Shown: piece after piece, positions 2 through 14,238 of the stretch
How positions within the stretch are numbered: position 1 is the stretch's first letter
How the letters are laid out: each line of letters starts with the position of its first letter
DNA from: Nitrospira japonica
Lineage (GTDB): Bacteria; Nitrospirota; Thermodesulfovibrionia; Thermodesulfovibrionales; SM23-35
DNA length: 14,238 nt
Assembly (NCBI GenBank): GCA_020725385.1
Contig: DYFC01000027.1
Coordinates: forward strand, 1-14,238
Reading direction: 5' to 3'
Notes under the pieces: model-generated
Told to the model about the DNA's origin: nothing
What the model saw: only the letters and a program-made list of their open reading frames with translations
Database searches by the model: none
Program-made: the position numbers and the translations under genes

Positions 2-2590
2 AACCATTTTCATAATCCTTTAAAATCATCTGAAGAATGGGAAGATGCGGGATTAAACGATACTGTTCTTGGAATATCTTACACTGGACAATCACAGGTG
101 CTATGGGCACAGAATCCAAATCAAAATATTGGAGGTAAGTGGTCATGGAAAGATGCACGAAGATATTTCTATATTGCATTAACAGGCAGAGACATTGATG
201 GCAGAGAAATAGCAAGAACAAAACAAGAGAGAGACTCATACTATGCATATACATTCAGGGCAATAGGTCAATTAATGCATCTTGTGCAAGATGCCTCTGT
301 TCCTGAGCATGTAAGAAATGATATTCATCTTTTGCCAGCATATGAGGCTAAGATAGAAGAATTTAGAACTAAGAAAGAAAAATATGATTATTTATGGGAT
401 AGATTATTTAAGAATCCTATCACATTTGATGAATCAATATTAAATATTTCTTCAACAAACCCATCTGCTCCTGTGACTATTTCTCGAATAGTTGATACGG
501 ATAAATACACAGGTAGCAATCCAGATATTACAAAAACCATATATGTTGATCTTCAACCTGCTCAACAGACTGTAGGTATATCTGAATACACCAATGCAAA
601 TTTTCTCAGTAAGGATACAATGTTTGAAAGAGATACTTTACATAATTTCTCTTTCCCTCGAACTATTGATACAATTTTATGGACTGATAGTAATAATCGG
701 AAATATTTCAGAAAAACTGGAAGCGGTGATACTATAAATCATTTAGCAATCACAAGCCTTATGTATTTTTATAGATGGAGATATTTTCCGCAATATGAAG
801 AATATCTTCCTGTTTCATTGGATGATGAATGCTATAAAGACTATGCATCTTTGCTAATTCCCCGAGCAGTTGGATATTCTGCGGGGTTACTGAATTATTT
901 TTTCAGAGGGAATATGGAGGGGTCCTATGTTAAAGAGCAAAGGGATGCCGGAGGAAACATCACAGGGATAACAATAAGAGTCACAAACCTTACAGTTGAT
1001 GAAACAATGAAAGGCAATTTAATGGTGGCTTATAGATATAAATTACAGGGCGAAACAGAATATACCTACGGACTTTCTAATATAATTACAAATATTGTTT
1101 TACCTTATCTTGATAGGGGAACATATACCTTTAATTTTCCTTCTTCAATATCTTCCAGAGCCTCTGAGAAACAGTACACTCTTGTATTCAGGGGAACACT
1201 TGGTAAAGAAGAAGGTGCAGTAATTGGTAAAGTTATAGGCATGATGACCACCCGTACAGTTGGACTTATCAATACATCGGGAGGAGACTCATATGGATTA
1301 TCACTAGCGGGAAGGGGCGGCAATGTAACTATACAGGCAGATGCAGTGATTCAACCTGTTAATGCCACAGGGTCTTTAATAGTTCCTGCTGGTACTACAG
1401 TGGCACTTTCAGGGATTCATGAGTATGTAACAATTCAGATAGATGGGACAGTGCAAGCAACGGGTTCTTTAACTCTAAGAACGTCAAACGGATTTTTCCT
1501 TAACGAAGGCGGACTCATAAGAGTGGAAAATGGTAAAAACGGTGGCACATTGATAGTTGAAAGCGAATGGATTGTGAAACTTGATGGTGTGATAGACACA
1601 TCTGGAAAGAATGCTGATTCAGAAGGTGGAGGAAACGGAGGCAATGTAACTATCAAGACCTCATATCCGATATTATTACAAGTTCCAACGATAGTAACAA
1701 GGGGTGGAGATGCAGATGAAGCTGCTATACATAGGGACCAAATATTAAGCAAAGGAGGCAGAGGTGGTGATGTTACCATCACTTCTATCAATGCCGATAT
1801 AATATTAGCTGGTGGTCCACCTCCAATTGATACATTACCTTTACCTCCACCATACAATCTGGGGAGCTTTGGGAAGACAAAACCTGATCCTGGAGAGAGA
1901 GTAGCTTTAAATAAAGCGATATATAATCCTGGCGAACAGATTGGTTTTAATAGAGGGATACTCACTTCAGGAGGTATGGGCGGTTCAGGACTTCTTGATA
2001 ATTGTTCTAACAATAACGGTGGTGAAGGTGGAGATGGAGGGGATATTTTTATAAGCACACAAAATGGAATTATCACGTTTAAGGACATTGACATTATAAC
2101 AGGGGCAGATGTCGAGACAGTTGTATCAACGATTTTTATTCCAGAGACAGGAGTGCAAAATATATATTATGCTTCAACAGGTTCACTTGGAGGAAAAGGA
2201 GTATCTGGAGGATGTGAAAGTAGCGGGAATGGTGGAAAAGGAGGCAATGCAGGCTCGATCACAGTTTTAGGGACAATACAGCCAGCACCAGCAAGATTTT
2301 TTAATGTAGGCGGACCTGATAATAATGGTTATATCGTTGGATTTAGTGATGGACAGAGGCGGCCTTATTATAATGACTATTATGAGGATTTTCTCATAGG
2401 CAGGACAATCCAGGCTGAAAGCGCAGATGGTTCTTTACTTTATCGTCTAAGGGTAGATTTTGCAGGTAATGCACTGGCAGGTTCAGGCGGTATCCCTGGC
2501 GGCTCAGTATTGTCAGGTTTCCCCGGGTTCTTCGGGTATCAGGGACAAGGTGGAACAATTTCCGGTCTGCTACCTATAACATTAAATTAA
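2..2590 (+). CDS. Large, probably secreted protein (5'-truncated by the window): Zn-dependent phospholipase C/S1-P1 nuclease-like domain, Ig-like linker, Gly-rich repeat C-terminal region
   Basis: The frame is open from base 2 (NHFHNPLKSSEEWEDAGLNDTVLGISYTGQSQVLWAQ), so the GTG at 98 is not the true start. Motifs NHFHNP, GQLMHLVQDASVPEH and IH...YE parallel the Zn ligands of Bacillus PC-PLC (HFYDP, HYLGD...PMH, HSKYE). The C-terminal half has about 5 repeats of I-x-T-S/R-G-G...GG-x-GG-[ND]-V-T-I. Confidence 0.65.
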   Translation, partial: NHFHNPLKSSEEWEDAGLNDTVLGISYTGQSQVLWAQNPNQNIGGKWSWKDARRYFYIALTGRDIDGREIARTKQERDSYYAYTFRAIGQLMHLVQDASVPEHVRNDIHLLPAYEAKIEEFRTKKEKYDYLWDRLFKNPITFDESILNISSTNPSAPVTISRIVDTDKYTGSNPDITKTIYVDLQPAQQTVGISEYTNANFLSKDTMFERDTLHNFSFPRTIDTILWTDSNNRKYFRKTGSGDTINHLAITSLMYFYRWRYFPQYEEYLPVSLDDECYKDYASLLIPRAVGYSAGLLNYFFRGNMEGSYVKEQRDAGGNITGITIRVTNLTVDETMKGNLMVAYRYKLQGETEYTYGLSNIITNIVLPYLDRGTYTFNFPSSISSRASEKQYTLVFRGTLGKEEGAVIGKVIGMMTTRTVGLINTSGGDSYGLSLAGRGGNVTIQADAVIQPVNATGSLIVPAGTTVALSGIHEYVTIQIDGTVQATGSLTLRTSNGFFLNEGGLIRVENGKNGGTLIVESEWIVKLDGVIDTSGKNADSEGGGNGGNVTIKTSYPILLQVPTIVTRGGDADEAAIHRDQILSKGGRGGDVTITSINADIILAGGPPPIDTLPLPPPYNLGSFGKTKPDPGERVALNKAIYNPGEQIGFNRGILTSGGMGGSGLLDNCSNNNGGEGGDGGDIFISTQNGIITFKDIDIITGADVETVVSTIFIPETGVQNIYYASTGSLGGKGVSGGCESSGNGGKGGNAGSITVLGTIQPAPARFFNVGGPDNNGYIVGFSDGQRRPYYNDYYEDFLIGRTIQAESADGSLLYRLRVDFAGNALAGSGGIPGGSVLSGFPGFFGYQGQGGTISGLLPITLN

Positions 2591-2633
2591 CCCAAAAATT
2601 CAGACAATGTCTTAACGCCTCTTAAATACTGTG

Positions 2634-2658
2634 GATGCTGAAACAAGTTCAGCATGAC
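2634..2658. repeat. REP-like palindrome copy 1 (GATGCTGAAACAAGTTCAGCATGAC)
   Basis: Perfect 8-bp stem ATGCTGAA/TTCAGCAT (2635-2642/2648-2655) with an ACAAG loop and a TGAC tail. Confidence 0.8.
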
Positions 2659-2680
2659 AATTTTTAAAACCTTAAAAATC

Positions 2681-2732
2681 GTCATCATAAAACATGCCCT
2701 AAACTTGTTTAGGGGTAGATTCAGAATTTACA
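2681..2732. repeat. Inverted, nested REP-like copy 2
   Basis: Starts with GTCAT and contains the hairpin CCCTAAA-CTTG-TTTAGGG (2697-2714), whose reverse complement carries the same AAACAAGTT core. TTCAGAATTTACA (2720-2732) matches the reverse complement of TGTGGATGCTGAA (2630-2642) at 10/13. Confidence 0.65.
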
Positions 2733-2832
2733 ACTGCATTTTTCAGATTAATGTTTTGAAGGGTTACTGTTATAATCAAGCACATTACAATTTATTTGGA
2801 TTATATAAGATACTAAACATAGAGAATAAACC

Positions 2833-2857
2833 ATTTCTTGAAACAAGCTCGGGGAAT
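2833..2857. repeat. Degenerate REP-like copy 3 (ATTTCTTGAAACAAGCTCGGGGAAT)
   Basis: Same TGAAACAAG core. A 9-bp stem is possible with three G-T/U pairs around the ACAAG loop. Confidence 0.5.
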
Positions 2858-2864
2858 ATGAATA

Positions 2865-2900
2865 TTAAAAAAACATTCTATTTTAGATTATAATAATCTA
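2865..2900 (+). promoter_or_regulatory. Putative sigma70 promoter for def, probably leaderless, overlapped by a 7-3-7 inverted repeat
   Basis: Perfect TATAAT at 2889-2894, 5 nt before the ATG at 2900. Weak -35 TTAAAA at 2865-2870. No Shine-Dalgarno. Inverted repeat TAGATTA-TAA-TAATCTA at 2884-2900. Confidence 0.5.
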
Positions 2901-3415
2901 TGGCGTTACTTGAAATTAAAAAATATCCTGACAAAATTTTAAAACAAAAGACAAAAGAATTATCGAATATTGATGGAGATACACAGAAACTTATTGATGA
3001 TATGCTCGAAACAATGCATAGAGTCAGAGGACTCGGGCTTGCAGCCAACCAGGTTGGAGTATCTCAGAAGTTATGTGTCATTGACCTGAGCTTAAAAGAA
3101 GATAATAAGATACCTCTTATAATTCTCATAAATCCTGTTATAGTTGAAACAGATGGCTCGGTTGATGCGGAAGAAGGATGTCTGAGTCTGCCCGGTTATA
3201 TGTCTTCGATAAAAAGGGCAGAGAAAGTATTTGTGAAAGGCTTGAATCGAGATGGCAAACCAATTGAACTCGAGGGGACAGGACTTCTTGCCCGGGCATT
3301 ACAGCATGAGATTGACCATCTTGAAGGTATGTTAATGTTCGACAGAATGAGTCCTATTAAAAGAGAATTTTTTAAAAGAAAATATTTGAGAGATATAAAA
3401 AAAATTAAAGACTGA
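2900..3415 (+). CDS. def: Peptide deformylase
   Basis: All three PDF motifs are present (GLGLAANQVG, EGCLS, QHEIDHLEG) and the gene is adjacent to fmt. Confidence 0.98.
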   Translation: MALLEIKKYPDKILKQKTKELSNIDGDTQKLIDDMLETMHRVRGLGLAANQVGVSQKLCVIDLSLKEDNKIPLIILINPVIVETDGSVDAEEGCLSLPGYMSSIKRAEKVFVKGLNRDGKPIELEGTGLLARALQHEIDHLEGMLMFDRMSPIKREFFKRKYLRDIKKIKD

Positions 3416-3460
3416 AAAATAATTCCATGTTCTGTTCTTATTCGTAGTTTTTTAAATATT

Positions 3461-4384
3461 ATGCAAATCGTATTTTTTGGCACTCCACAATTCGCTATAC
3501 CATCTCTTAAAGCACTTATTGCTTCAGGCAATAAAGTGCTTGCGGTAGTAACTCAATCCGACAAGAGAAGAGGACGGTTAGGGAATCCTTCTCCTCCACC
3601 GGTTAAAGAACTTGCAGTAAGTGAAAATATCAAGGTGTTACAACCCGAAAAAATAAATTCTCCCTTATTTATTGAGGAATTATCTCGCCTTGAGCCTGAT
3701 ATAATTGTAGTTGTAGCTTACGGAAAAATATTGCCTCCCCGGATACTGAATCTTCCACGCCTTGGATGTATTAATGTACATGCATCTATACTTCCTAAAT
3801 ATAGAGGTGCTGCACCAATTCAGTGGGCGATTATAAATGGAGAAAAAGAAACCGGTGTAACCACAATGTTAATGGATGAAGGACTCGATACAGGTGATAT
3901 TTTTCTTCAGGAACGCATTAAAATCGAAGAAGAAGATAATTCAGAAACTCTTGCAAAAAAGCTCTCTGAATTAGGGGCATCATTATTAATAAAAACCATT
4001 GAAGGTCTTGATTTAGGCAATCTAAACCCTGTTCCACAACATGGTACACCTTCTTATGCTCCTGTACTTAAAAAAGAAGACGGAAGAATAAACTGGAATA
4101 TGATTGCTACTGATATATGGAATTTTGTGCGCGGCATGTATCCATGGCCTGGAGCTTTTACCAATTTGAACACGGAAAGATTAAAGATAATAAATGTAAA
4201 ACCTATTCAAGGACAGGGCATTCCCGGCAGGATTGAAAGTATTTCAAATAAACTTATTATCGGTACAGGAAATGGTTTAATCGAAATTATTGAGATTCAA
4301 CCTGAAGGGAAAAGAATAATGAATGCAAAAGAATTTATTATTGGAAGAAGACTGAAAGAAGGCGACTTTTTTGGCAATTATTAA
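3461..4384 (+). CDS. fmt: Methionyl-tRNA formyltransferase
   Basis: Motifs FFGTPQFA, VVAYGKILP, INVHASILPKYRGAAPIQWAI, MDEGLDTGD and PWPGAFT; 307 aa; follows def. Confidence 0.98.
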   Translation: MQIVFFGTPQFAIPSLKALIASGNKVLAVVTQSDKRRGRLGNPSPPPVKELAVSENIKVLQPEKINSPLFIEELSRLEPDIIVVVAYGKILPPRILNLPRLGCINVHASILPKYRGAAPIQWAIINGEKETGVTTMLMDEGLDTGDIFLQERIKIEEEDNSETLAKKLSELGASLLIKTIEGLDLGNLNPVPQHGTPSYAPVLKKEDGRINWNMIATDIWNFVRGMYPWPGAFTNLNTERLKIINVKPIQGQGIPGRIESISNKLIIGTGNGLIEIIEIQPEGKRIMNAKEFIIGRRLKEGDFFGNY

Positions 4385-4901
4385 GATTGCAAGGGGATTT
4401 ACACTTAAAATTCTTTACCCTCTTTTTATGCTGGCAGGTTCATTTATAAAGAGTAAAAAAGAGAGCTATCAGAATTTTATCATCGGGCTTAATAACGAAC
4501 TTGTAATAAAAGAAAAGCCATTACCAAAAAAAATACTCCTTCTTCTTCCTCATTGCCTTCAAATTAATGAGTGTGATATAAGATTGACGTATAATATAAA
4601 CAATTGTAAACGCTGCGGCAAATGCCCGATAAAGGATCTGATTTATTTGGCTGAAGGAAGCGGCCTTGAAATTTTTATTGCAACAGGAGGATCATTGGCA
4701 AGAAGAATAATTCATGATGTCAAACCCGAGGCTGTTATTGCAGTAGCATGTGAAAATGATTTAAGCAGTGGCATTGCGGATATTTATCCAATGCCTGTTA
4801 TCGGTATCCCGAACGAAAGACCATTCGGACCGTGTATAAACACAAGGGTAAATATTGAAAAAATAAAGGAAGCTGTGAGGTTTTTTGCGCGGAAACAATG
4901 A
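4371..4901 (+). CDS. DUF116 family Cys-rich protein
   Basis: Motifs LLLPHCLQ...C, NCKRCGKC, ATGGSLAR, AVACENDL..G and NERPFGPCINT. This family typically lies after fmt. TTG start overlaps fmt by 14 nt, so the start is uncertain. Confidence 0.85.
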   Translation: MAIIKIARGFTLKILYPLFMLAGSFIKSKKESYQNFIIGLNNELVIKEKPLPKKILLLLPHCLQINECDIRLTYNINNCKRCGKCPIKDLIYLAEGSGLEIFIATGGSLARRIIHDVKPEAVIAVACENDLSSGIADIYPMPVIGIPNERPFGPCINTRVNIEKIKEAVRFFARKQ

Positions 4902-5590
4902 AGAAAGAAATTAGCAAGCTATTAAGTTTTCCATTGTATATATTTTCATTTATATTGCTCGGGCTTTTTTTTGGCTTTATTACATTTAAAATATTAAGTT
5001 TTAGTAGAACCGTGGAGGTGCCGGAACTTAGGGGCAAAAGTCTTGTTGAAGCAAATAAATTTCTAAATGATGCCGGATTGTATTTAAAGATAGAAGGAGA
5101 AGATTATGATTCCGAAATTCCCCAGGGTCGAATAATCAAACAGGATGTGCCTCCAGGGAATAAAGTCAAAGAGCGTAGAGGTATAAAGGTTTTAATAAGC
5201 AAGGGTCCACGAATCAACTCTGTTCCATTGCTTGTAAATGAAACCATTGGAAATGCTGAATCCCTGCTTACCAGCAAAGGACTCAAATTTGGAAAAATAA
5301 TCGCGGTACATTCGGATGTTGTTGAAAAAGATCTTATAATAGCCCAGCGACCAGAACCAAATGATCCTGTCAGCGATACAATTACGGTAATTGTAAGTAT
5401 GGGACCTTATGAAAAAATATATTTTTGTCCAAATTTCAAAGGGATGACAATTGAACAGGCAAAATTTCTTATAACAAAACTTAATTTAAAACTTATAATA
5501 AACGGTGAAGGAGAAATTGTAGAATCACAAAATCCCGAGCCGGGAAGACAAATAAAAAGTGGTGACACAATTTACTTGAAGCTTATCTAA
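4898..5590 (+). CDS. Membrane-anchored PASTA domain protein (three PASTA repeats, no kinase domain)
   Basis: N-terminal transmembrane helix. Repeats VEVPELRGKSLVEA...IIKQDVPPG, VPLLVNETIGNA...IIAQRPEP and CPNFKGMTIEQA...VESQNPEPG. ATGA overlap with the DUF116 gene. Confidence 0.88.
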   Translation: MKKEISKLLSFPLYIFSFILLGLFFGFITFKILSFSRTVEVPELRGKSLVEANKFLNDAGLYLKIEGEDYDSEIPQGRIIKQDVPPGNKVKERRGIKVLISKGPRINSVPLLVNETIGNAESLLTSKGLKFGKIIAVHSDVVEKDLIIAQRPEPNDPVSDTITVIVSMGPYEKIYFCPNFKGMTIEQAKFLITKLNLKLIINGEGEIVESQNPEPGRQIKSGDTIYLKLI

Positions 5591-5632
5591 GTTTATATTT
5601 ATTATATATTCTGAAAAAAATACGGGGGTAAT

Positions 5633-6292
5633 ATGTTAAAGATAGCTCCTTCAATTCTGTCTGCCGATTTCTTAAGACTCGGAGATGATATAAAAGCTGC
5701 TGAGATCGCTGGCGCTGATTTATTGCATATAGATGTAATGGATGGACATTTTGTTCCTAATATTACAATCGGGCCTGCTATAGTTGAAGCAATAGATAAG
5801 GTTACTAAATTACCTCTGGATGTACATCTTATGATTGAAAATCCTGAAAAGTATATTCAAGATTTCATAGATGCCGGTGCCGATTACTTAACAATACACT
5901 ATGAAGCTTCTATACATTTACACAGAACAATTCAGTATATCAAAGGGAAAGGAATTAAAGCAGGGGTATCTTTAAATCCTTCAACTACTATTAATAGTCT
6001 GGAGGAAGTCATTAATGATATTGACATGGTTCTAATAATGTCGGTTAATCCGGGGTTTGGTGGCCAGAAATATATTCAAAAATCTACCGATAAGATTAAA
6101 AGATTAAAAAACCTTATAACCGAAAAGGGTTCAAATGCTTTAATAGAAGTTGATGGAGGAATAGGAATCGATAACGCTTTAGAAGTAATTTCATCTGGTG
6201 CTGATATTCTTGTAATGGGTTCGGCATTTTTCAACTCAGGAGACTATGAAACATTTGTCAAAAAAATCAGAAATATCGCAGACAACAGATAA
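5633..6292 (+). CDS. rpe: Ribulose-phosphate 3-epimerase
   Basis: Motifs IAPSILSAD, HIDVMDGHFVPN, DVHLM, MSVNPGFGGQ and EVDGGI. GGGGG Shine-Dalgarno-like sequence upstream. Confidence 0.98.
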   Translation: MLKIAPSILSADFLRLGDDIKAAEIAGADLLHIDVMDGHFVPNITIGPAIVEAIDKVTKLPLDVHLMIENPEKYIQDFIDAGADYLTIHYEASIHLHRTIQYIKGKGIKAGVSLNPSTTINSLEEVINDIDMVLIMSVNPGFGGQKYIQKSTDKIKRLKNLITEKGSNALIEVDGGIGIDNALEVISSGADILVMGSAFFNSGDYETFVKKIRNIADNR

Positions 6293-7358
6293 AATCTTTA
6301 ACAAAGCAGAATCATTAAGAAAAAATTGTCTATACAAAGAATCTCTTGTTTTTTTTAAGAAGGCTTTAAAGAAATACATATTTCTAAATGATACTGCAAA
6401 CATATTTCGTTCCTATGCAGCAATTGGTGATGTTTACAGGATGATAGGCAATTTCAACCTTGCTGCGGACAACTATCTTGCAGCAATTAATATTTCTAAT
6501 TCTGAAGATTGTGCTGTCATGAAAGCTGATGCCGGTGTTGGTTTGGGGCTCTCCATGCGTGCTCTCGGAAACTGGAAAGATGCCCTTTTTCATTTAAATA
6601 GATCCAAAAAATATTATAGAAAGAATAATGATACCGAAGGTCTTGCTTTTACCCTTTGGGCTGAAGCCGGAACATACAGAATAAAAGGAGATATTAAAAA
6701 AGCAATTAACACTTTCTTAGAATCCATGAAATTGTTTGAATCTTTAAAAGATATGCATGGTACAGGATATTGCATGTGCGGGCTCGGTGGAACTTCAAGG
6801 GTTGCAGGCAATTTTTCGGATTCATTGAAATATTACAAAGCTGCCAACAGGATATTCATGAAATTAAAAGATAAATTTGGAATTGCTTATTCATATTGCG
6901 GAATTGGTAACGCATATAGAATGTTATCAGATTTTAAAAAATCGTTTGCATTTTTCAGAAAAGCTTCAAAAACATATGAAAAAATAGGGGATATTGTTAG
7001 TTATTCTTATACGCTATGGGGAATTGGAACATCACATAAGATGATCGGGAATTACGAAGAAGCAAATGGATTTTTCAATAAAGCTATTCTGAATTTTAAA
7101 AAGACAAAAGATCCGCGTGGTATGATTTACTGTAAACTTGCTAAAGGAGAACTATCTTTGCTGAACGGAAGAACACTTCTGGCTAATAAATATATTGAAA
7201 GAGCATTAAATGATGCGATTAGATATAAATTTGCTATAGAAAAATGTTATGCAAATACATTAAAATCTATACTTACAAAAGGCAATGTAAATTTATCCTG
7301 TTATAAAAATCTTGGTATCGAACTTAATTTGAGAGAAATACCGCTCAATATACCTTAA
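6246..7358 (+). CDS. Tetratricopeptide repeat protein (about 40-aa MalT-like TPR units)
   Basis: Recurring units such as G.AY.YCGIGNAYR...F..S..F..A...Y..I.D at ~40-aa spacing. AGGAG at 6238-6242 precedes the ATG. Overlaps rpe by 47 nt. Confidence 0.85.
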   Translation: MKHLSKKSEISQTTDKIFNKAESLRKNCLYKESLVFFKKALKKYIFLNDTANIFRSYAAIGDVYRMIGNFNLAADNYLAAINISNSEDCAVMKADAGVGLGLSMRALGNWKDALFHLNRSKKYYRKNNDTEGLAFTLWAEAGTYRIKGDIKKAINTFLESMKLFESLKDMHGTGYCMCGLGGTSRVAGNFSDSLKYYKAANRIFMKLKDKFGIAYSYCGIGNAYRMLSDFKKSFAFFRKASKTYEKIGDIVSYSYTLWGIGTSHKMIGNYEEANGFFNKAILNFKKTKDPRGMIYCKLAKGELSLLNGRTLLANKYIERALNDAIRYKFAIEKCYANTLKSILTKGNVNLSCYKNLGIELNLREIPLNIP

Positions 7359-7373
7359 TTTATCGGGAGTTTT

Positions 7374-7913
7374 ATGGGGGTTTTAAATATACCTAATACA
7401 CTTACTGTTGCACGTATTTTGATTATTCCAGTTTTTATTACTTCTATAATATATAAGCGTTACAATTATTCTTTATATTTGTTTATAATCGCTGCCCTTA
7501 CCGATTTATTTGACGGACTTTTCGCCCGTCTGACAAATCAGAAAACCGAACTGGGTACATTCCTTGACCCTATTGCGGATAAATTTCTTCTTGTCACATC
7601 TTTTATAATTTTTACTGTTTATGGCTGGATTCCAAAGTGGCTTACAATAATAGTTATTAGCAGGGATGTAATAGTTATAACAGGATGGTTAATTATTTAT
7701 TTTACTTCAGGAATCTCAAGGGTTGAGCCATCAATTATTGGAAAAGCAACTATATGGTTTCAGAGTTTGCTCATTGCATATATATTAATAGATGTTAATA
7801 TTCCACTTTCTGAAGGATTTCCTGAATTATTTTTCATAATAACAGCTTGTGTCACCATAATATCCGGACTTGATTATATTTACAAAGGTTTGAAATTAAC
7901 ACATGCGGTCTGA
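7374..7913 (+). CDS. pgsA: CDP-alcohol phosphatidyltransferase (PgsA-like)
   Basis: NIPNTLTVAR plus the family motif DLFDGLFAR-x7-GTFLDPIADK; multiple transmembrane segments; GGGAG Shine-Dalgarno at 7365-7369. The exact substrate cannot be determined from sequence. Confidence 0.8.
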   Translation: MGVLNIPNTLTVARILIIPVFITSIIYKRYNYSLYLFIIAALTDLFDGLFARLTNQKTELGTFLDPIADKFLLVTSFIIFTVYGWIPKWLTIIVISRDVIVITGWLIIYFTSGISRVEPSIIGKATIWFQSLLIAYILIDVNIPLSEGFPELFFIITACVTIISGLDYIYKGLKLTHAV

Positions 7914-9198
7914 AACCGGTATCGAAATAAGTAAAATAGAAAGCAATAGCCTTGCCGAACAAGCCGGAATGCAACCGGGAGATATTATATTGTCTATAAA
8001 TTCACATCCACTAAGAGATCCGGTTGATTTCATGTATTACAGTTCAGATGATATTTTAAATATTGAAGTTAAACGTAATGAGAAGATACAAATTGTCACA
8101 GTAAAGAGGAGAGACGAAATAGGATTTGGAATAGAATTCAAACCTTTTAAAGTTCGAACATGCAGAAATAATTGCATTTTTTGTTTTGTCAAACAACTCC
8201 CGAAAGGATTAAGAAAGACTTTATATGTAAAGGATGAAGATTATAGATTATCCTTTCTCTATGGTAACTATATTACACTATCGAATATTACCAAAGAAGA
8301 TAAAAAACGTATAGTCGAGCAGAGATTAAGCCCTCTATATATTTCCGTTCATTCTACTAACAAAGGGCTCAGAAACAAACTTATCGGGAATCCTAAAGGA
8401 CCCGATATAATGAAAGAATTAAAATTTTTTGCTGATAATAAAATACGTTTCAATGCTCAAATTGTTCTTTGTCCAGGCTATAATGATGGCAGAGAATTAC
8501 ATCAGACTATTAATAATCTATTTAGATTCTATCCCTATCTTCTGTCTATAGCTGTTGTGCCGGTCGGTTTAACAGTATATCATAAACAGAATCTTAATCC
8601 TGTACAAAAGGCAGATGCTGAAAATGCTCTGAAAACAATCGAATATTTTCAAAGAAGGTTTGTAAAAAAACATGGTAACCCAATAGTCTATGGTGCTGAC
8701 GAACTATATTTAAAAGCCGGAATCCCTTTTCCTCCATTAAAAGAATATAGGGAACTATATCAGCTTGAAAATGGTGTTGGCATGTTACCACTATTTCTTA
8801 ATCAAGTAAAAAAGCTTAAAATAAACAGAACATTTATTCCAAAGAAGAAGTTTCTTACTTTTACAGGAACATCTTTTTATCCTTTCCTTAATAAATTTGT
8901 TGAAAGACTTAATGAGAAAGAGAAGATTTCTATCGATTTACTGGAAGTAGAGAACAGATTTTTTGGCCCTTCAATTACTGTGGCAGGATTGATTTCCGGA
9001 AGGGATATTATCAAATCAATTCTGGATAGAACGGATGGATATGATAAAATATTTGTGCCGGATGTAACTTTAAATTCTGAAGATAAGTTTCTTGACGATG
9101 TTACTTTAAGTGATCTTAAAGAAGCTACCGGAATACCTGCAGTAAAAATACCTTCAACTCCTGAAGGATTGGTGGAAAATATTTTTAATGCAGTATAA
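7903..9198 (+). CDS. PDZ-domain/DUF512 putative radical-SAM Fe-S oxidoreductase
   Basis: N-terminal PDZ-like segment (SLAEQAGMQPGDIILSIN), CxxxCxxC motif (CRNNCIFC), LYVKDEDYRLSFLYGNYITL, AVVPVGLT, QLENGVG and NRFFG..ITVAGL. Confidence 0.92.
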   Translation: MRSETGIEISKIESNSLAEQAGMQPGDIILSINSHPLRDPVDFMYYSSDDILNIEVKRNEKIQIVTVKRRDEIGFGIEFKPFKVRTCRNNCIFCFVKQLPKGLRKTLYVKDEDYRLSFLYGNYITLSNITKEDKKRIVEQRLSPLYISVHSTNKGLRNKLIGNPKGPDIMKELKFFADNKIRFNAQIVLCPGYNDGRELHQTINNLFRFYPYLLSIAVVPVGLTVYHKQNLNPVQKADAENALKTIEYFQRRFVKKHGNPIVYGADELYLKAGIPFPPLKEYRELYQLENGVGMLPLFLNQVKKLKINRTFIPKKKFLTFTGTSFYPFLNKFVERLNEKEKISIDLLEVENRFFGPSITVAGLISGRDIIKSILDRTDGYDKIFVPDVTLNSEDKFLDDVTLSDLKEATGIPAVKIPSTPEGLVENIFNAV

Positions 9199-9208
9199 CG
9201 TATTGATT
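9196..9208 (-). promoter_or_regulatory. IHF consensus site
   Basis: Reverse complement AATCAATACGTTA fully matches WATCAANNNNTTR and lies ~35 bp upstream of the sigma54 site. A 1-mismatch copy, AAACAATAGGTTA, is at 9307-9319. The AT-rich context raises the chance of random matches. Confidence 0.4.
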
Positions 9209-9242
9209 AATATTAAACAAATTAAGTTTCTTAGACAATTTT

Positions 9243-9259
9243 CTGGCATAAACATTGCT
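9243..9259 (+). promoter_or_regulatory. Sigma54 (RpoN) -24/-12 promoter
   Basis: CTGGCATAAACATTGCT has exact GG-N10-GC spacing and matches YTGGCAY-N5-TTGCW. It is oriented toward the lytic transglycosylase gene. Confidence 0.7.
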
Positions 9260-9369
9260 TAATATAATAAAAGCATTTATTTTAATCAATTTTAAATTTG
9301 TAATAAAAACAATAGGTTATAGTGTTAGGTTTAGAATATGATAAAGGAAAGTGTTTTAATTTTTACAAG

Positions 9370-9392
9370 AATGTGGAAAAATTTTCCACATT
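9370..9392. promoter_or_regulatory. Perfect 11-1-11 palindrome made of two inverted DnaA-box-like nonamers
   Basis: AATGTGGAAAA-A-TTTTCCACATT. Each arm contains TTTTCCACA, which matches TTWTNCACA. It ends 21 bp upstream of a -35 box. Confidence 0.6.
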
Positions 9393-9413
9393 TTTTTGGA
9401 AAAAGTAAAAAAG

Positions 9414-9450
9414 TTGACAGAAAATAGTGTGAATGATAATATTTTTAATA
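9414..9450 (+). promoter_or_regulatory. Sigma70 promoter giving a probable leaderless transcript
   Basis: TTGACA at 9414-9419, a 17-bp spacer containing the extended TG (9434-9435), TAATAT at 9437-9442, then the ATG at 9450 after 7 nt. No Shine-Dalgarno. Confidence 0.7.
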
Positions 9451-10196
9451 TGAAATTTATTATATCTGCTTTAATTATTTTTATTTTTACATCGTCAATC
9501 AGTTATGCTGACATTTATAAATATATTGATGAAAACGGTGTAATCTGTTATACAGACCTGCCTATAAACAAAAAAGCTGATAGAATCCATAAAGATAAAC
9601 AGAAAACTACCGATGAATCATTGGCACAGGAAAAGGCACAAAGCAGAAACAGATCCAATAGTGTGCGGACTGCTGAATACCATGAAATAATTCATGAGAA
9701 AGCAAATGCATATAATATTGACCCTTCACTTGTTAAAGCTGTTATTAAAACCGAATCAAATTATAATAGCAGGGCTATTTCCAGAAAAGGTGCGATGGGT
9801 CTAATGCAATTAATGCCATCTACTGCAAATGATCTTAATGTGCATAATCCCTTTGATCCCGAAGAAAATATAGAGGGCGGGATAAAATATCTCAAATATC
9901 TACTAGAGAAGTTCAACGGAAACCTTACGCTTGCACTCGCTGCATATAACGCAGGTCCGAAGAGGGTTGAAAAATATGGATATGTACCTCCGATTACAGA
10001 AACAAAACAATATGTTAACAAAGTCCTTTCCTTATATAATGGACCAACACAATATCAGGTCGAAAATTCAGGCAATCCGGATACACAGGATAAAAAAGTA
10101 AAAAAACCCGATCCTATTTATAAAGTAGTACTTGATGATGGAACGATTATGTTTACAAATTCAACTTTCTTTTCGAAATATCCTAATAAACTGTAA
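9450..10196 (+). CDS. Secreted lytic murein transglycosylase (DUF4124 + SLT domain)
   Basis: The ATG at 9450 gives the signal peptide MKFIISALIIFIFTSSISYA/DIYKYIDENG, preferred over the TTG at 9396. SLT motifs AVIKTES, SRKGAMGLMQLMP, AAYNAGP and ETKQYV. Confidence 0.92.
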   Translation: MKFIISALIIFIFTSSISYADIYKYIDENGVICYTDLPINKKADRIHKDKQKTTDESLAQEKAQSRNRSNSVRTAEYHEIIHEKANAYNIDPSLVKAVIKTESNYNSRAISRKGAMGLMQLMPSTANDLNVHNPFDPEENIEGGIKYLKYLLEKFNGNLTLALAAYNAGPKRVEKYGYVPPITETKQYVNKVLSLYNGPTQYQVENSGNPDTQDKKVKKPDPIYKVVLDDGTIMFTNSTFFSKYPNKL

Positions 10197-11183
10197 ATGC
10201 CCCCAAACAATTTAAAGCTTGTTGAAAAAATCATAAAACTTAAAGAAAAAAGAAATGCAATAATTCTTGCCCATAATTATCAACGTGACGAAGTTCAGGA
10301 AATAGCAGATTTTACAGGAGACTCTCTTGAACTTTCAAGAACCGCATCCGAGATTAAATGTGATGTGATTGTTTTTGCGGGTGTAAACTTTATGGCTGAG
10401 AGCGCATCAATTCTAAATCCTGATAAGACGGTACTTCTTACAGAAAAAAACGCTGGCTGCCCCATGGCCGATATGATACATGTTGATACGCCGCGCATTG
10501 AAAGAAAAAGCTTTCCGGGGTTTAAAAATCCGCCTCCTTTTATATTTCCCGCATATTATACACTTAGAGATATTCAGGCAAAATATCCGGATGCACCTGT
10601 GGTCTCTTATGTAAACACTACCGCTGATATTAAAGCCGAAAGTTTTATCTGTTGTACTTCGGCTAATATAATTAAAGTCATTGAATCACTTCCGGACGAA
10701 ATTATTATATCGGTTCCTGATAGAAATCTTTCAGCCTGGGCACAAAAACATACGAAGAAAAAAATTATTTCATGGGATGGATTCTGTCATGTACATGAAA
10801 GAGTAACTGTGGATGATATAAGCAGGGCAAGAAAAGAGCATCCGAAAGCATTAATAATGGCACATCCTGAATGCAGACTTGATGTTCTTGAGATGGCTGA
10901 CTGTGTAACAAGCACTTCAGGAATGTTACGATATGCAAAGTCTTCTTCTGAAAAAGAATTTGTTGTTGGCACCGAAATTGGTTTAATGTACCGTTTAAGG
11001 AAGGAAAACCCTGATAAAACATTCTATCCACTCAGAAAAGATATGATTTGTCCTAATATGAAAATGACAACATTACAAAGTGTTTATAGGGCTTTGAGTG
11101 AAAATACTTTCGTTGTTAAGGTGCCCGAATATATTCGTATTCCTGCCCAAAAAGCCCTTGATAGGATGCTCGAAGTAAGTTAA
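10197..11183 (+). CDS. nadA: Quinolinate synthase A
   Basis: Motifs AHNYQ, GDSLELS, GVNFMAE, AGCPMAD, YVNT, CCTSAN, GFCHVH, AHPEC, GTEIG and CPNMK. All three [4Fe-4S] Cys ligands are present. Confidence 0.97.
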   Translation: MPPNNLKLVEKIIKLKEKRNAIILAHNYQRDEVQEIADFTGDSLELSRTASEIKCDVIVFAGVNFMAESASILNPDKTVLLTEKNAGCPMADMIHVDTPRIERKSFPGFKNPPPFIFPAYYTLRDIQAKYPDAPVVSYVNTTADIKAESFICCTSANIIKVIESLPDEIIISVPDRNLSAWAQKHTKKKIISWDGFCHVHERVTVDDISRARKEHPKALIMAHPECRLDVLEMADCVTSTSGMLRYAKSSSEKEFVVGTEIGLMYRLRKENPDKTFYPLRKDMICPNMKMTTLQSVYRALSENTFVVKVPEYIRIPAQKALDRMLEVS

Positions 11184-11211
11184 CCCGAAAGATGCGGGCA
11201 TTGCTCAAAAA
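11180..11211 (+). repeat. Dispersed TTAACCC repeat copy overlapping the nadA stop codon
   Basis: TTAACCCGAAAGATGCGGGCATTGCTCAAAAA. Bases 11183-11211 match 14181-14209 at 23/29 without gaps. Confidence 0.7.
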
Positions 11212-11252
11212 AATTTTAGGCAACTTTTCAATATTACATGAAAGGAATGGTT

Positions 11253-12797
11253 ATGAAATATAAGCATATATTTTTATCTATCTGCACAATAATTTTAGCT
11301 TTATTCTTACTTTCCACTTCGTTTGCTGAAATTAAGGAAATACGAATTTTGCATATTAATGACTTTCATGGATTTGCCGAACCTTACAAACCATTTGGTT
11401 CTAATGAATATTTAGGAGGAGTTGCTTTTCTTGCATCAAAAATAAATTCTTTAAGGAATGAAAAACCTACACTATTAATAGCTGCAGGAGATATGATTTA
11501 TGGAAATAATTGGACTAATCTGTTTTATGGCGAATCTGTAGTTGAATTAATGAATATAATGAAGTTTGATGCCATGGTTGTCGGAAATCATGAATTTGAT
11601 TTTGGGCAGGAAATTCTAAAGAAAAGAATATCCGGAGCTTCATTCCCCGTACTTGGAGCGAATATTGAAGGAATTGAATCATTAAAACCATATATAATTA
11701 AAAATATCTCGGGAATTAATGTTGGAATTATTGGAGTTATAACAGAAGATACACCTGAATCAACTCACCCCCGAAACGTAACAGGTTTGGGATTTAAGCC
11801 TGCTACGGAAACTATATCAAGATATTTAAATGAGATTAGAGCAAAGGTTGATATAGTTATTGTGCTTTCCCACCTTGGATATTACAGTGACAGGAAAATT
11901 GTTAAACAAATTAATGGAATAGATTTAATTGTCGGCGGACATTCACATACAAAAGTTACAAATCCTGTAAAAATAAATAATACTTTAATTGTTCAAGCAT
12001 GGGAATATGCCAAAGCACTTGGTGTTGTTGATATTACTTTTGAAGATGGAAAGATTATTAATTCAATAGGCTATCTCGAAGAAATTAAGCCAATTTCCGG
12101 TCAGGAAAATAAAGAAGTTCAGGATATAGTTGAAAAATATAAAAGAAGAGTTGATGAAATTCTTGATAGAACAATAGGTATAGCTTTAACAGATCTTGAT
12201 GGTGAAAATGTAAGAAAAGACGAAACAAATCTTGGTAATTTCATTGCTGATATTATTAAAGAAACATCCGGAGCAGATGTGGCGTTACTCAATGCCGGGA
12301 CAATACGAACAGGGATTAAAAAAGGAGAGATAAAAGTTAAGCATGTTTATTCAGTATTGCCTTTTGATAATTATATTGTTGCTATAAAACTAACAGGCAG
12401 ACAAATTAGAGAAGCATTAGAACACGGGATATCTGCGGTTGAAAAAAATGAAGGAAGATTCCCACAAATTTCGGGTATGTCTTTTAAATATAACCCGGAA
12501 GCCAATTTCGGAGAAAAAGTCACTTTTATAAACATATCAGGCAACCCCATTGATATGGATAAAGAATATTCTGTGGCAACCAATGATTTTCTTGTTGCAG
12601 GTGGTGATGGTTATAAGGTTTTTGGAAAGGTTCTCAAATCATCAAAAGATTTATCAATTACAGGTGGCGCAATTAAAAGTGAAAAACTTATCTATAATGA
12701 GCCCGGAAAGTGGCTCAGGGATATTGTGGTTGAGTATATAATGAAAAAAGGTGAAATTCAACCTATGAAGGAAGGTAGAATTATTTCAACAAAATAA
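11253..12797 (+). CDS. Periplasmic 5'-nucleotidase/UDP-sugar hydrolase (UshA/NadN-like metallophosphoesterase plus C-terminal domain)
   Basis: Signal peptide and motifs HINDFHG, AGD, GNHEFD, LSHLG, GGHSHT, NAGTIR, GRFPQISG and NDFLVAGGDGY. Start 11253 is favoured by AAAGGA at 11241-11246; alternatives are 11238 and 11247. Confidence 0.93.
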   Translation: MKYKHIFLSICTIILALFLLSTSFAEIKEIRILHINDFHGFAEPYKPFGSNEYLGGVAFLASKINSLRNEKPTLLIAAGDMIYGNNWTNLFYGESVVELMNIMKFDAMVVGNHEFDFGQEILKKRISGASFPVLGANIEGIESLKPYIIKNISGINVGIIGVITEDTPESTHPRNVTGLGFKPATETISRYLNEIRAKVDIVIVLSHLGYYSDRKIVKQINGIDLIVGGHSHTKVTNPVKINNTLIVQAWEYAKALGVVDITFEDGKIINSIGYLEEIKPISGQENKEVQDIVEKYKRRVDEILDRTIGIALTDLDGENVRKDETNLGNFIADIIKETSGADVALLNAGTIRTGIKKGEIKVKHVYSVLPFDNYIVAIKLTGRQIREALEHGISAVEKNEGRFPQISGMSFKYNPEANFGEKVTFINISGNPIDMDKEYSVATNDFLVAGGDGYKVFGKVLKSSKDLSITGGAIKSEKLIYNEPGKWLRDIVVEYIMKKGEIQPMKEGRIISTK

Positions 12798-12798
12798 G

Positions 12799-12993
12799 AT
12801 GATAGTTTATGTTAATAACAAAGCAGTAGAAATAATTCATGGCATGAAAGTCAGACATGCATTAATAAGTGCAGAAATTCTTAAAGAAGGTATTTCAATC
12901 AAATCTATAACTGATGAATGGGGAAATGAAGTTGGTATGGATGGAGAACTTTCAGAGGGTGATAAAATATTTGTTAATATAGAAGTTCAATGA
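12799..12993 (+). CDS. Small putative beta-grasp (ThiS/MoaD/TGS-like) protein without C-terminal GG
   Basis: 64 aa, filling the gap exactly (1 nt after the nucleotidase stop, ATGA overlap downstream). The pattern MIVYVNNKAVEI..GMKVRHAL...LSEGDKIFV resembles ThiS-like strands and the L-x-[DE]-G-D-x-I motif. Confidence 0.65.
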   Translation: MIVYVNNKAVEIIHGMKVRHALISAEILKEGISIKSITDEWGNEVGMDGELSEGDKIFVNIEVQ

Positions 12994-14111
12994 ATTTGCT
13001 TGAAAAGAAAATTAAAGAACTAATACATCAAAAAAGCCATATAACTTTTGAAACCTTTATGCAAATGGCTCTTTATGAGCCTGAATTAGGTTATTATTCT
13101 TCTGATCGAATAAAAATTGGTAAAGAGGGAGATTACTACACAAGCCAGCATCTTCATCCTGCCTTCGGCGCAATGCTCGGAAAGCAACTTATTGAAATGT
13201 GGAAATTTATGGGCAAACCTTCCACCTTTTATTCTGTAGAACAGGGCGCAGGTGAAGGCTATATGTGCAATGACATACTTAATTATCTTAAAGATAAAGA
13301 AATATATGATGCACTTAAATACATAATAGTTGAGCCTCACCCTTTCATGGAACAAAAACAAAAAAATTTACTCAAGAGGTTTAGTAATAAAATCGCATGG
13401 ACTGCATCACTTAAAGAACTTAAAAATATAAATGGCTGTATATTATCTAATGAGCTTTTAGATGCTTTTCCTGTCCACTTAGTCGAGATGGAAAATGAAT
13501 TAAAAGAAATTTATATTACCCTTAAGGGAGATAATAATTTCATAGAAATTAAGGATATACCATCTTCTGATGATCTAAACAAATATTTAGATGAATTTTC
13601 TATTTCATTGCCTTATGGATATAGAACCGAAATTAATTTAAAAATAAAAGACTGGATTAAAGAAGTTAATGAAGTACTTGCTGAAGGATTTATATTGACA
13701 ATTGATTATGGTTATCCTTCCTGTGAATATTATAGCGAGGAGAGAAATAGAGGGACATTGATGTGTTATTACCGGCATCAGTTTACCGAAAATCCTTACA
13801 TAAATATTGGAAATCAAGACATTACAGCTCATGTAAATTTCTCTTCTGTTAAAAAATATGGTGAGGAATTTGGAATTGAGACAATTGGCTTTGCTAATCA
13901 AGGAGCTTATCTTGTCTCACTTGGAATTGACCAGATTATTTCTGAATTATACCGGAATTCAAAAGATTATCTTTTTGAGGTAGCTAAAATAAAACGTCTG
14001 ATTCTTCCGGGCACTATAGGTGAAACGCATAAAGTAATGATACAGTATAAGGGAGAAGGGGTTCCTGTACTGAAAGGTTTCTCGATAAAAAATCAGATAA
14101 ACAAACTTTAA
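12990..14111 (+). CDS. SAM-dependent methyltransferase, NDUFAF7/MidA (DUF185) family
   Basis: Motifs FMQMALYEPELGYY, GDYYTS, VEQGAGEG, SNELLDAFPVH, IDYG, GTLMCYYRH and QDITAHVNF. Confidence 0.92.
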   Translation: MNLLEKKIKELIHQKSHITFETFMQMALYEPELGYYSSDRIKIGKEGDYYTSQHLHPAFGAMLGKQLIEMWKFMGKPSTFYSVEQGAGEGYMCNDILNYLKDKEIYDALKYIIVEPHPFMEQKQKNLLKRFSNKIAWTASLKELKNINGCILSNELLDAFPVHLVEMENELKEIYITLKGDNNFIEIKDIPSSDDLNKYLDEFSISLPYGYRTEINLKIKDWIKEVNEVLAEGFILTIDYGYPSCEYYSEERNRGTLMCYYRHQFTENPYINIGNQDITAHVNFSSVKKYGEEFGIETIGFANQGAYLVSLGIDQIISELYRNSKDYLFEVAKIKRLILPGTIGETHKVMIQYKGEGVPVLKGFSIKNQINKL

Positions 14112-14126
14112 CCCGAAAAATACATA
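14108..14126 (+). repeat. Dispersed TTAACCC repeat copy overlapping the methyltransferase stop codon
   Basis: TTAACCCGAAAAATACATA, 17/19 to the consensus TTAACCCGAAAAATGCAGA. Confidence 0.6.
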
Positions 14127-14155
14127 ACATAAATTATAAAAAGCAAACCGCACAC

Positions 14156-14183
14156 TTTACGTTTTACGTGTTTACGCTTTACC
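14156..14183 (+). repeat. Short tandem TTTACG repeat (4 copies, period 7-8)
   Basis: TTTACG at 14156, 14163 and 14171, and TTTACC at 14178. Confidence 0.7.
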
Positions 14184-14209
14184 CAAATAATGCAGACGTT
14201 GCTCAAAAA
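14178..14209 (+). repeat. Dispersed repeat copy (TTTACCCAAATAATGCAGACGTTGCTCAAAAA)
   Basis: Direct repeat of 11183-11211 (23/29) and related to 2587-2605. Confidence 0.7.
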
Positions 14210-14238
14210 TTTATTTAACTCGATGATTTTTATATCAA

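Follow-up and report, generated by a model that had tools for sequence, protein, structure and literature searches.

Why do three unrelated genes within one stretch of bacterial DNA end in a TAA stop codon that lies inside the same motif, TTAACCC? The stretch, called the window here, is the whole of contig DYFC01000027.1 (14,238 nucleotides) of the Nitrospira japonica assembly GCA_020725385.1. The original prediction, made from its letters alone, took the motif for the ends of an abundant miniature transposable element with inverted repeats (MITE) that inserts at TTAA where a stop codon makes insertion harmless, and named a conserved signal of the 3' untranslated region (3'-UTR) as an alternative. 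The motif is very probably a TTAA target-site duplication of 4 bp followed by the terminal inverted repeat (TIR) of an insertion sequence (IS) of the IS1380 family and of several non-coding MITE families with the same ends. This upholds the mobile-element reading of the prediction, with repeat families across the genome that have common termini, a transposase linked to those termini, 4-bp duplications, and presence or absence of the elements at the same sites among relatives. As TTAA contains TAA, the motif overlaps stop codons, and its position on unrelated stops is explained as the footprint of a TTAA-inserting transposon family. The elements are ordinary selfish DNA, another member of an already known kind of mobile element.

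The window corresponds to the entire contig C22 of a 2.46-Mb assembly (G000) of 71 contigs with 34.7% G+C. Comparisons were made with other genomes of the same family or order, labelled G001 onward, and individual loci in them are labelled L.

Repeat families headed by the motif

All five copies of the motif placed in the window by the prediction are present. The open reading frames (ORFs) in question terminate at 2590, 11183 and 14111 on the plus strand, and the TAA of each lies inside TTAACCC. The motif reads TTAACCCAAAAATTCAGAC at 2587, TTAACCCGAAAGATGCGGGC at 11180 and TTAACCCGAAAAATACATA at 14108; a fourth copy, at 14178, reads TTTACCCAAATAATGCAGAC and is flanked by TTTA rather than TTAA, while the fifth, on the minus strand at 2751-2734, reads TTAATCTGAAAAATGCAG and agrees with the consensus at 16/18 positions. 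A 20-mer consensus searched with up to three mismatches gave three matches in the window against 0.01 expected, and three were reached in none of 200 shuffles. Relations among the copies had been overlooked. Those at 2587 and 2751 are the two ends of a single 165-bp element. The copies at 11180 and 14178 resemble each other over 32 nt and not 19. The copy at 14178 opens a 184-bp repeat, MITE-A, that runs past the contig end. The features of the window are as follows.

2587-2590, plus strand: left copy of a TTAA target-site duplication, whose TAA (2588-2590) is the stop codon of ORF1
2591-2747, plus strand: body of an old MITE of 165 bp (size including the TTAA flanks), with left TIR CCCAAAAATTCAGAC and right TIR TCTGAAAAATGCAGTTG
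2748-2751, plus strand: right copy of the TTAA target-site duplication of the 165-bp MITE
11180-11183, plus strand: TTAA containing the nadA stop codon TAA; the site is empty in G001 and holds a complete MITE in G004
11184-11211, plus strand: solo remnant of a MITE-A left end, CCCGAAAGATGCGGGCATTGCTCAAAAA, common to the sister species G005
14108-14111, plus strand: TTAA in which the Methyltransf_28 gene has its stop codon TAA; in G005 a MITE-A right end sits at this TTAA
14112-14124, plus strand: TIR remnant CCCGAAAAATACA, with 1 mismatch to the TIR consensus
14178-14238, plus strand: TTTA flank (14178-14181) and first 57 nt of a MITE-A left end, 95% identical over 61 nt

The left TIR of the 165-bp MITE is one base shorter than the consensus, and its right TIR is given as read on the minus strand. 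Related copies of this MITE are found on other contigs, for example at C27:47349-47515 (72% over 168 nt).

Across the genome, the TIR is 14-17 nt long, CCCGAAAAATGCAG(TT), and directly follows the TTAA target-site duplication. Of the pattern ACCC[GA]AA[AT]AATGCA, the 2.46 Mb contained 35 exact copies, 40 with one mismatch and 167 with two. For the 13-mer that begins at CCC, without the leading A, exact matches numbered 37 and one-mismatch matches 61, a reversed control having 0 and 5. Several unrelated internal sequences are headed by the motif. One of them, MITE-A, measures 184 bp including flanks; full-length copies, each with a TTAA at either side, lie at C53:81254-81437 and C10:86122-86305. 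Its two ends resemble two families and yet are inverted repeats of one another, and at the right end the terminal 14 nt are repeated in tandem in degraded form. Paired inverted ends, which the prediction had suggested looking for, are seen in the complete MITE-A copies as well as in the element at 2587-2751. MITE-A contains 31 of the 142 contig ends of the assembly, the end of the window (14178-14238) included, where the contig breaks off inside the repeat at 14238. Much of the assembly's fragmentation is therefore due to the MITE-A family.

Both elements in the window have the properties expected of MITEs. They are short (below about 300 bp; MITE-A 184 bp, the 2587-2751 element 165 bp) and have no transposase ORF. 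The CCCRAAWAATGCAG tips occur on the MITEs, on an autonomous IS in G006 and on the IS ends of G000. TTAA/TTAA duplications flank elements on C53, C10 and C13 (two sites) and at the nadA site of G004. The families are multi-copy and vary in presence between genomes, as seen from contig ends, internal copies and orthologous stops that are filled or empty. Of the family's other genomes, 15 of 18 contained the exact 17-mer TTAACCCRAAWAATGCA, as did two of 12 from the order's other families; a control pattern had 0 matches in all 31 genomes.

Inspection of the motif by eye also raised promoter (sigma-54 or sigma-70) and hairpin readings, which were dropped once the family structure was clear.

An IS1380-family element carrying the same ends

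A transposase with the same termini, as the prediction had suggested seeking, was found in G006. This genome belongs to the same family, is assembled in 4 contigs and gave eight motif matches, three of them about 550 bp from a PF01609 match. G006 holds 18 copies (the three adjacent to PF01609 matches and others, including 13 more that were fetched) of a 1621-bp element, 86.8-100% identical to one another, with the motif at their ends. The element is bounded by CCCAAAAARTGCAGTTGACC... and ...GCA(C/T)TTTTCGGG. On NF033539, 'IS1380 family transposase' (cut-off 180), its 461-aa ORF reached 205 bits, and on PF13701 it reached 95 bits. The architecture is also that of the IS1380 family: a single ORF in 1621 bp, TIRs of about 16 nt and 4-bp flanks that vary together. 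These flanks were TTAA/TTAA in 13 of the 18 copies, TTAT/TTAT in two, and CTAA/CTAA, TCAA/TCAA and ATAA/TTAA in one each. Four of the five deviant copies match at the first and fourth flank positions, which indicates that the sequence divides as TTAA + CCC and not as TA + ACCC. Close relatives of the IS in three other metagenome-assembled genome (MAG) records are flanked by TTAA/TTAA, and a fourth, with one end in the locus, by TTAT. The element is thus one with CCC...GGG tips and a 4-bp duplication for which TTAA is preferred.

The division of the motif bears on two other identities. TTAACCC could be read as T-TA-ACCC, the end of an IS630/Tc1-mariner-type element with a TA duplication and ACCC...GGGT tips, and in G006 an IS630-family transposase (NF033545, 106.8 bits) does lie between MITE-A-like left and right ends. 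However, the three copies of this IS630 element have only positions 125-1411 of that inter-end region in common, and their own ends differ, so that it is nested inside a MITE-A-like copy. The variant flanks (TTAT/TTAT twice, CTAA/CTAA and TCAA/TCAA) match outside the central TA, which is unexpected for a 2-bp duplication, and the motif was on none of the 10 other DDE_3 loci fetched (L011-L020). Neither a TA duplication nor an IS630 transposase bounded by the motif as its own ends was observed. The IS982 family, whose ends the prediction had named as similar, fared no better: PF13612 had 0 matches in G000, with the control positive in three of 14 genomes, and the transposase that has these ends belongs to the IS1380 family. 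That the motif marks an IS630-type or IS982-type element is extremely unlikely.

At one locus (L024, G006:C2:318300-321300) the IS630-family IS sits within a MITE-A-like element, which makes the MITE ends look IS630-like; as a nested passenger it was set aside as the parent. The 10 best PF01609 loci were likewise set aside as partners, none having these ends, and single-end two-mismatch matches in L003 and L005 were ascribed to chance. IS982, IS4 and IS5 partners within G000 were discarded on 0 matches to PF13612 and PF01609. Pairs of TIRs at IS-like spacing in G000 enclosed only cellular genes between unrelated solo ends, for example at C45:768-1886 and C26:5730-6746.

Fragments of the IS1380-type element are present in the genome of the window itself. 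A tblastn search with the G006 transposase matched 65 residues of its C terminus, at 63% identity, to C17:1-195, after which the IS has its right end at C17:326. Two other right ends were located, at C33:22279 and C68:11508, as were a left end at C45:34093 and another where C8 ends. All of them adjoin TTAA and sit near contig ends; G000 accordingly has its own copies of the IS, collapsed in assembly. The two ends of this IS share 17 nt, CCCGAAAAATGCAGTTA, identical to the consensus given in the original prediction.

G006 (at L104, L115, L121 and L125) and G009 (at L103) also hold another IS1380 group of more canonical type, which scored 410 bits on NF033539 and is about 1657 bp long. Its tips begin CCCACATAATTCAT... 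and have the CCC...GGG form, and its flanks are YTAR, identical on both sides in three of the five copies; the other two have TTAG/CTAA and CTAG/CTAA, perhaps as a result of recombination between copies. The same tips together with YTAR flanks indicate that the architecture is a trait of the family and the strong TTAA preference a trait of the clade.

Stop codons and orthologous sites

If the motif is inserted DNA, orthologous stops in relatives should be found both with and without it. The gene ending at 11183 encodes NadA (PF02445). Within the genus, nadA was found in four members (G000, G005, G001 and G004), and in each of them it ends AGT TAA. In G001 the sequence continues AGT TAA GAG... 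without a TIR and is the empty site that the prediction had called for; this site reads TTAA, at which a never-filled and an excised state look alike. In G004 the stop is filled by a complete element of about 180 bp flanked by TTAA/TTAA, beyond which the gene is the one found downstream of nadA in the other genera compared. In G000 and G005 the stop has the same left-end remnant, and the next gene is another one, for the 5'-nucleotidase. In G011, from a different genus, nadA ends in TGA and a degraded element comes after it, and in the other six genomes of the same family that were compared the nadA stop codons do not form TTAA and no TIR is present. In all four (G000, G005, G001 and G004) the nadA frame has 328 codons, with the site empty as with it filled, which indicates that insertion leaves the protein unchanged, as predicted. 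The gene ending at 14111 (Methyltransf_28, PF02636) has a stop, CTT TAA, that is filled in G000 and G005 only; the other four members of the genus have TGA (G001 and G004), TAG (G003) or ATAA (G002), with no TTAA and no TIR. The ORF1 stop was dropped from this comparison, as no ortholog was found in the 12 related genomes searched with the last 333 residues of ORF1.

The gene past nadA in G004 (L045) and in most other genera encodes a protein starting ...AERRI.EA..NGEFD.L.... In G000 (window 11184-11240) and G005 (L043) the gene past nadA changes where the TIR remnant lies, and this points to a rearrangement at the element downstream of nadA.

The variation between species bears directly on the idea that the motif is a 3'-UTR signal (of termination, processing or protein binding) that selection has kept and transposition has not spread. 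The copies do sit at gene ends, the 165-bp element contains two terminator-like hairpins, and TTAA-flanked 22-bp palindromes made of two TIRs exist, as at C13:41226-41255. However, presence at orthologous stops varies between species, 18 copies that show target duplications have a transposase gene between two such motifs, and 31 of the 142 contig ends break within near-identical copies. Rfam gave 0 matches at the gathering threshold over the whole window, and terminator-like sites there number 8 against 7.2 in shuffles. A conserved 3'-UTR signal is therefore hardly credible, although secondary use of some copies as terminators is possible. For annotators, this is a caution that these ends are not regulatory signals.

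A different question is whether the elements, mobile as proposed, are steered to gene ends or stop codons by the transposase or a host factor and do not simply enter any TTAA. In G000, 2060 ORFs of at least 100 aa were called, covering 88.9% of the genome; 1282 end in TAA, 414 of these preceded by T. For TIRs with at most one mismatch, whatever the flank, the number of ends that coincided with a called stop was five of 97, where 4.6% per end was expected (P=0.46). A second count took as background every TTAA, in both orientations, that is followed by 13 non-coding bases, and scored whether it closed an open frame of at least 100 codons. This was so for 275 of the 7703 comparable TTAA sites (3.6%) and for 18 of the 96 TTAA sites that adjoin a TIR with at most three mismatches (odds ratio 6.6; Fisher P=6e-9, with P=8e-9 also given). 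With at most two mismatches the count was nine of 67 (P=6e-4). Column-shuffled patterns gave 0.27 matches at two mismatches and 2.6, or about three, at three, which indicates that the degenerate matches are mostly real remnants. At the nadA stop, moreover, elements of opposite orientation are found in G000 and G005 on the one hand and G004 on the other, with an old one in G011.

Against steering, the excess rises with divergence: stop overlap was 1/23, 3/18, 5/26 and 9/29 for TIRs with 0, 1, 2 and 3 mismatches, respectively. Exact-TIR copies lie on stops at the background rate (1/23 versus 3.6%), and the excess is confined to decayed copies. The stop-codon bias anticipated by the original prediction is thus present overall and absent from the least-diverged copies, and its suggestion that stops as such are targeted found no support. 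In addition, the scan needed an intact TTAA; stops keep TTAA and neutral DNA loses it, so that old copies at stops are over-counted. Steering to stops is accordingly improbable. With gene calls that are crude and a trend that is marginal, the stop pattern probably reflects TTAA targeting, survival and ascertainment and not stop-codon targeting. Insertions at stops are harmless and would for that reason be kept, and selection or survival would lie behind the excess. The case is a worked example of a stop-codon excess that is seen in diverged copies and absent from the least-diverged ones.

Under the preferred reading, TTAA insertion by an IS1380-family IS and its MITEs, a DDE transposase would bind the terminal repeat of 14-17 nt, cut at the CCC/GGG tips and integrate the element at TTAA with duplication of the four bases; the MITEs would be mobilised in trans. 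TTAA has TAA on both strands, and genes ending in T-TAA would be available targets. The duplication would restore the stop codon and leave the protein unaltered, and such copies, together with decayed solo ends, would persist and give the look of a motif seated on stops.

Several observations weigh against this reading. Identical 4-bp flanks were found in only six of 45 candidate paired elements in G000, where many old copies are degraded and many have indels at their tips; the clean duplication evidence consequently comes from relatives. One G006 copy has unequal flanks (ATAA/TTAA). The interior of MITE-A is unlike the G006 IS past the first ~16 nt. No complete transposase gene is assembled in G000 (PF01609 and PF13612, 0 matches; NF033539, none at E≤1e-10), and a putative active autonomous copy there is judged from fragments. 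No clean empty site was found for the complete MITE-A copies on C53 and C10: the flanks of the former had no usable match in G005, G001, G004 or G002, and for the latter G005 has an older degraded end at the same TTAA.

Known mobile elements and other observations in the window

Members of the IS1380 family (NF033539, PF13701; for example IS1380, ISEcp1 and ISPme1) are typically about 1.5-2 kb long, with one ORF, CC ends and repeats of 4-5 bp; ISEcp1 makes 5-bp repeats. The G006 IS resembles them in its transposase, which is over the curated cut-off, its length of about 1.6 kb, its one ORF, its short TIRs starting with CC and its 4-bp duplication. It differs within the family in that its clade strongly prefers TTAA (13/18) and is accompanied by several MITE families across a family of Thermodesulfovibrionales-type MAGs. 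A literature search found no paper linking an IS1380-family element to a TTAA target, although the family tables of ISfinder may already list such targets, and the parts of PMC9330008 that deal with IS1380 concern promoters and gene capture only.

The MITEs are like the Correia elements of Neisseria and the RUP elements of Streptococcus pneumoniae in being short, non-coding, bounded by TIRs, multi-copy and mostly intergenic, with some abutting genes. Correia and RUP elements duplicate TA and are tied to IS630-type or unknown transposases, whereas here the duplication is of 4 bp and the partner is of IS1380 type.

A TTAA duplication and CCC...GGG tips are features of the piggyBac superfamily of eukaryotic DNA transposons, and the elements described here have both. 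Unlike piggyBac elements, the G006 IS has a transposase that gives only PF13701 and PF01609 in Pfam at E≤0.01, with no match to the piggyBac-type transposase family (DDE_Tnp_1_7). Searched against PDB chains, the G006 transposase had no sequence match at E≤10. IS1380-like elements have been named the prokaryotic counterpart of piggyBac in passages of PMC5718144 and bioRxiv 10.1101/2021.09.26.461848, and IS1380 transposases serve as the outgroup in piggyBac trees in part of PMC10140906. The likeness to piggyBac-type ends that the original prediction had offered is therefore well placed, IS1380 being a recognised bacterial relative of piggyBac (PMC5718144), and the present elements add a bacterial lineage in which IS1380-type elements show the target and the tip sequence of piggyBac. 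It is conceivable, if on balance unlikely, that this Nitrospirota clade of IS1380 elements has TTAA and CCC...GGG in common with piggyBac by descent and not by convergence, in which case TTAA-specific integration, and perhaps seamless excision, would predate the split between IS1380 and piggyBac, and the MITEs would represent a recurrent, protein-neutral placing of mobile hairpins behind genes. If so, these small elements would be a tractable bacterial model for TTAA integration.

Besides ORF1, nadA and the methyltransferase gene, the window holds housekeeping genes: def, fmt, rpe and genes for a PASTA protein, a CDP-alcohol transferase, a radical-SAM/DUF512 protein, an SLT transglycosylase and a 5'-nucleotidase. 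ORF1 (window 2-2590, plus strand) is open at the contig start and has at least 862 codons; it matched no Pfam family at E≤1e-4, and short glycine-rich DNA repeats lie within it. The terminator-like hairpins of the 165-bp MITE are at 2635-2655 on the plus strand (ATGCTGAAACAAGTTCAGCAT), 45 nt past the ORF1 stop, and at 2714-2697 on the minus strand (CCCTAAACAAGTTTAGGG), and their core, CTGAAACAAGTTCAG, was found again in other copies of this MITE family.

Elements of 22 bp that consist of two abutting terminal repeats (CCCGAAAAATG|CATTTTTCGGG) and are flanked by TTAA occur in G000 at C13:41226-41255, C13:15501-15530, C19:17172-17201 and elsewhere; these could be MITEs of minimal size or have arisen by internal deletion. 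At C33:22230-22300 in G000 the right end of the IS adjoins the end of another MITE with one TTAA common to both (...TTTTTCGGG TTAA CCCGAAAAATGCAG...), which indicates that one element inserted into the TTAA that flanked the other. Similar nesting was seen at C10:86122-86340.

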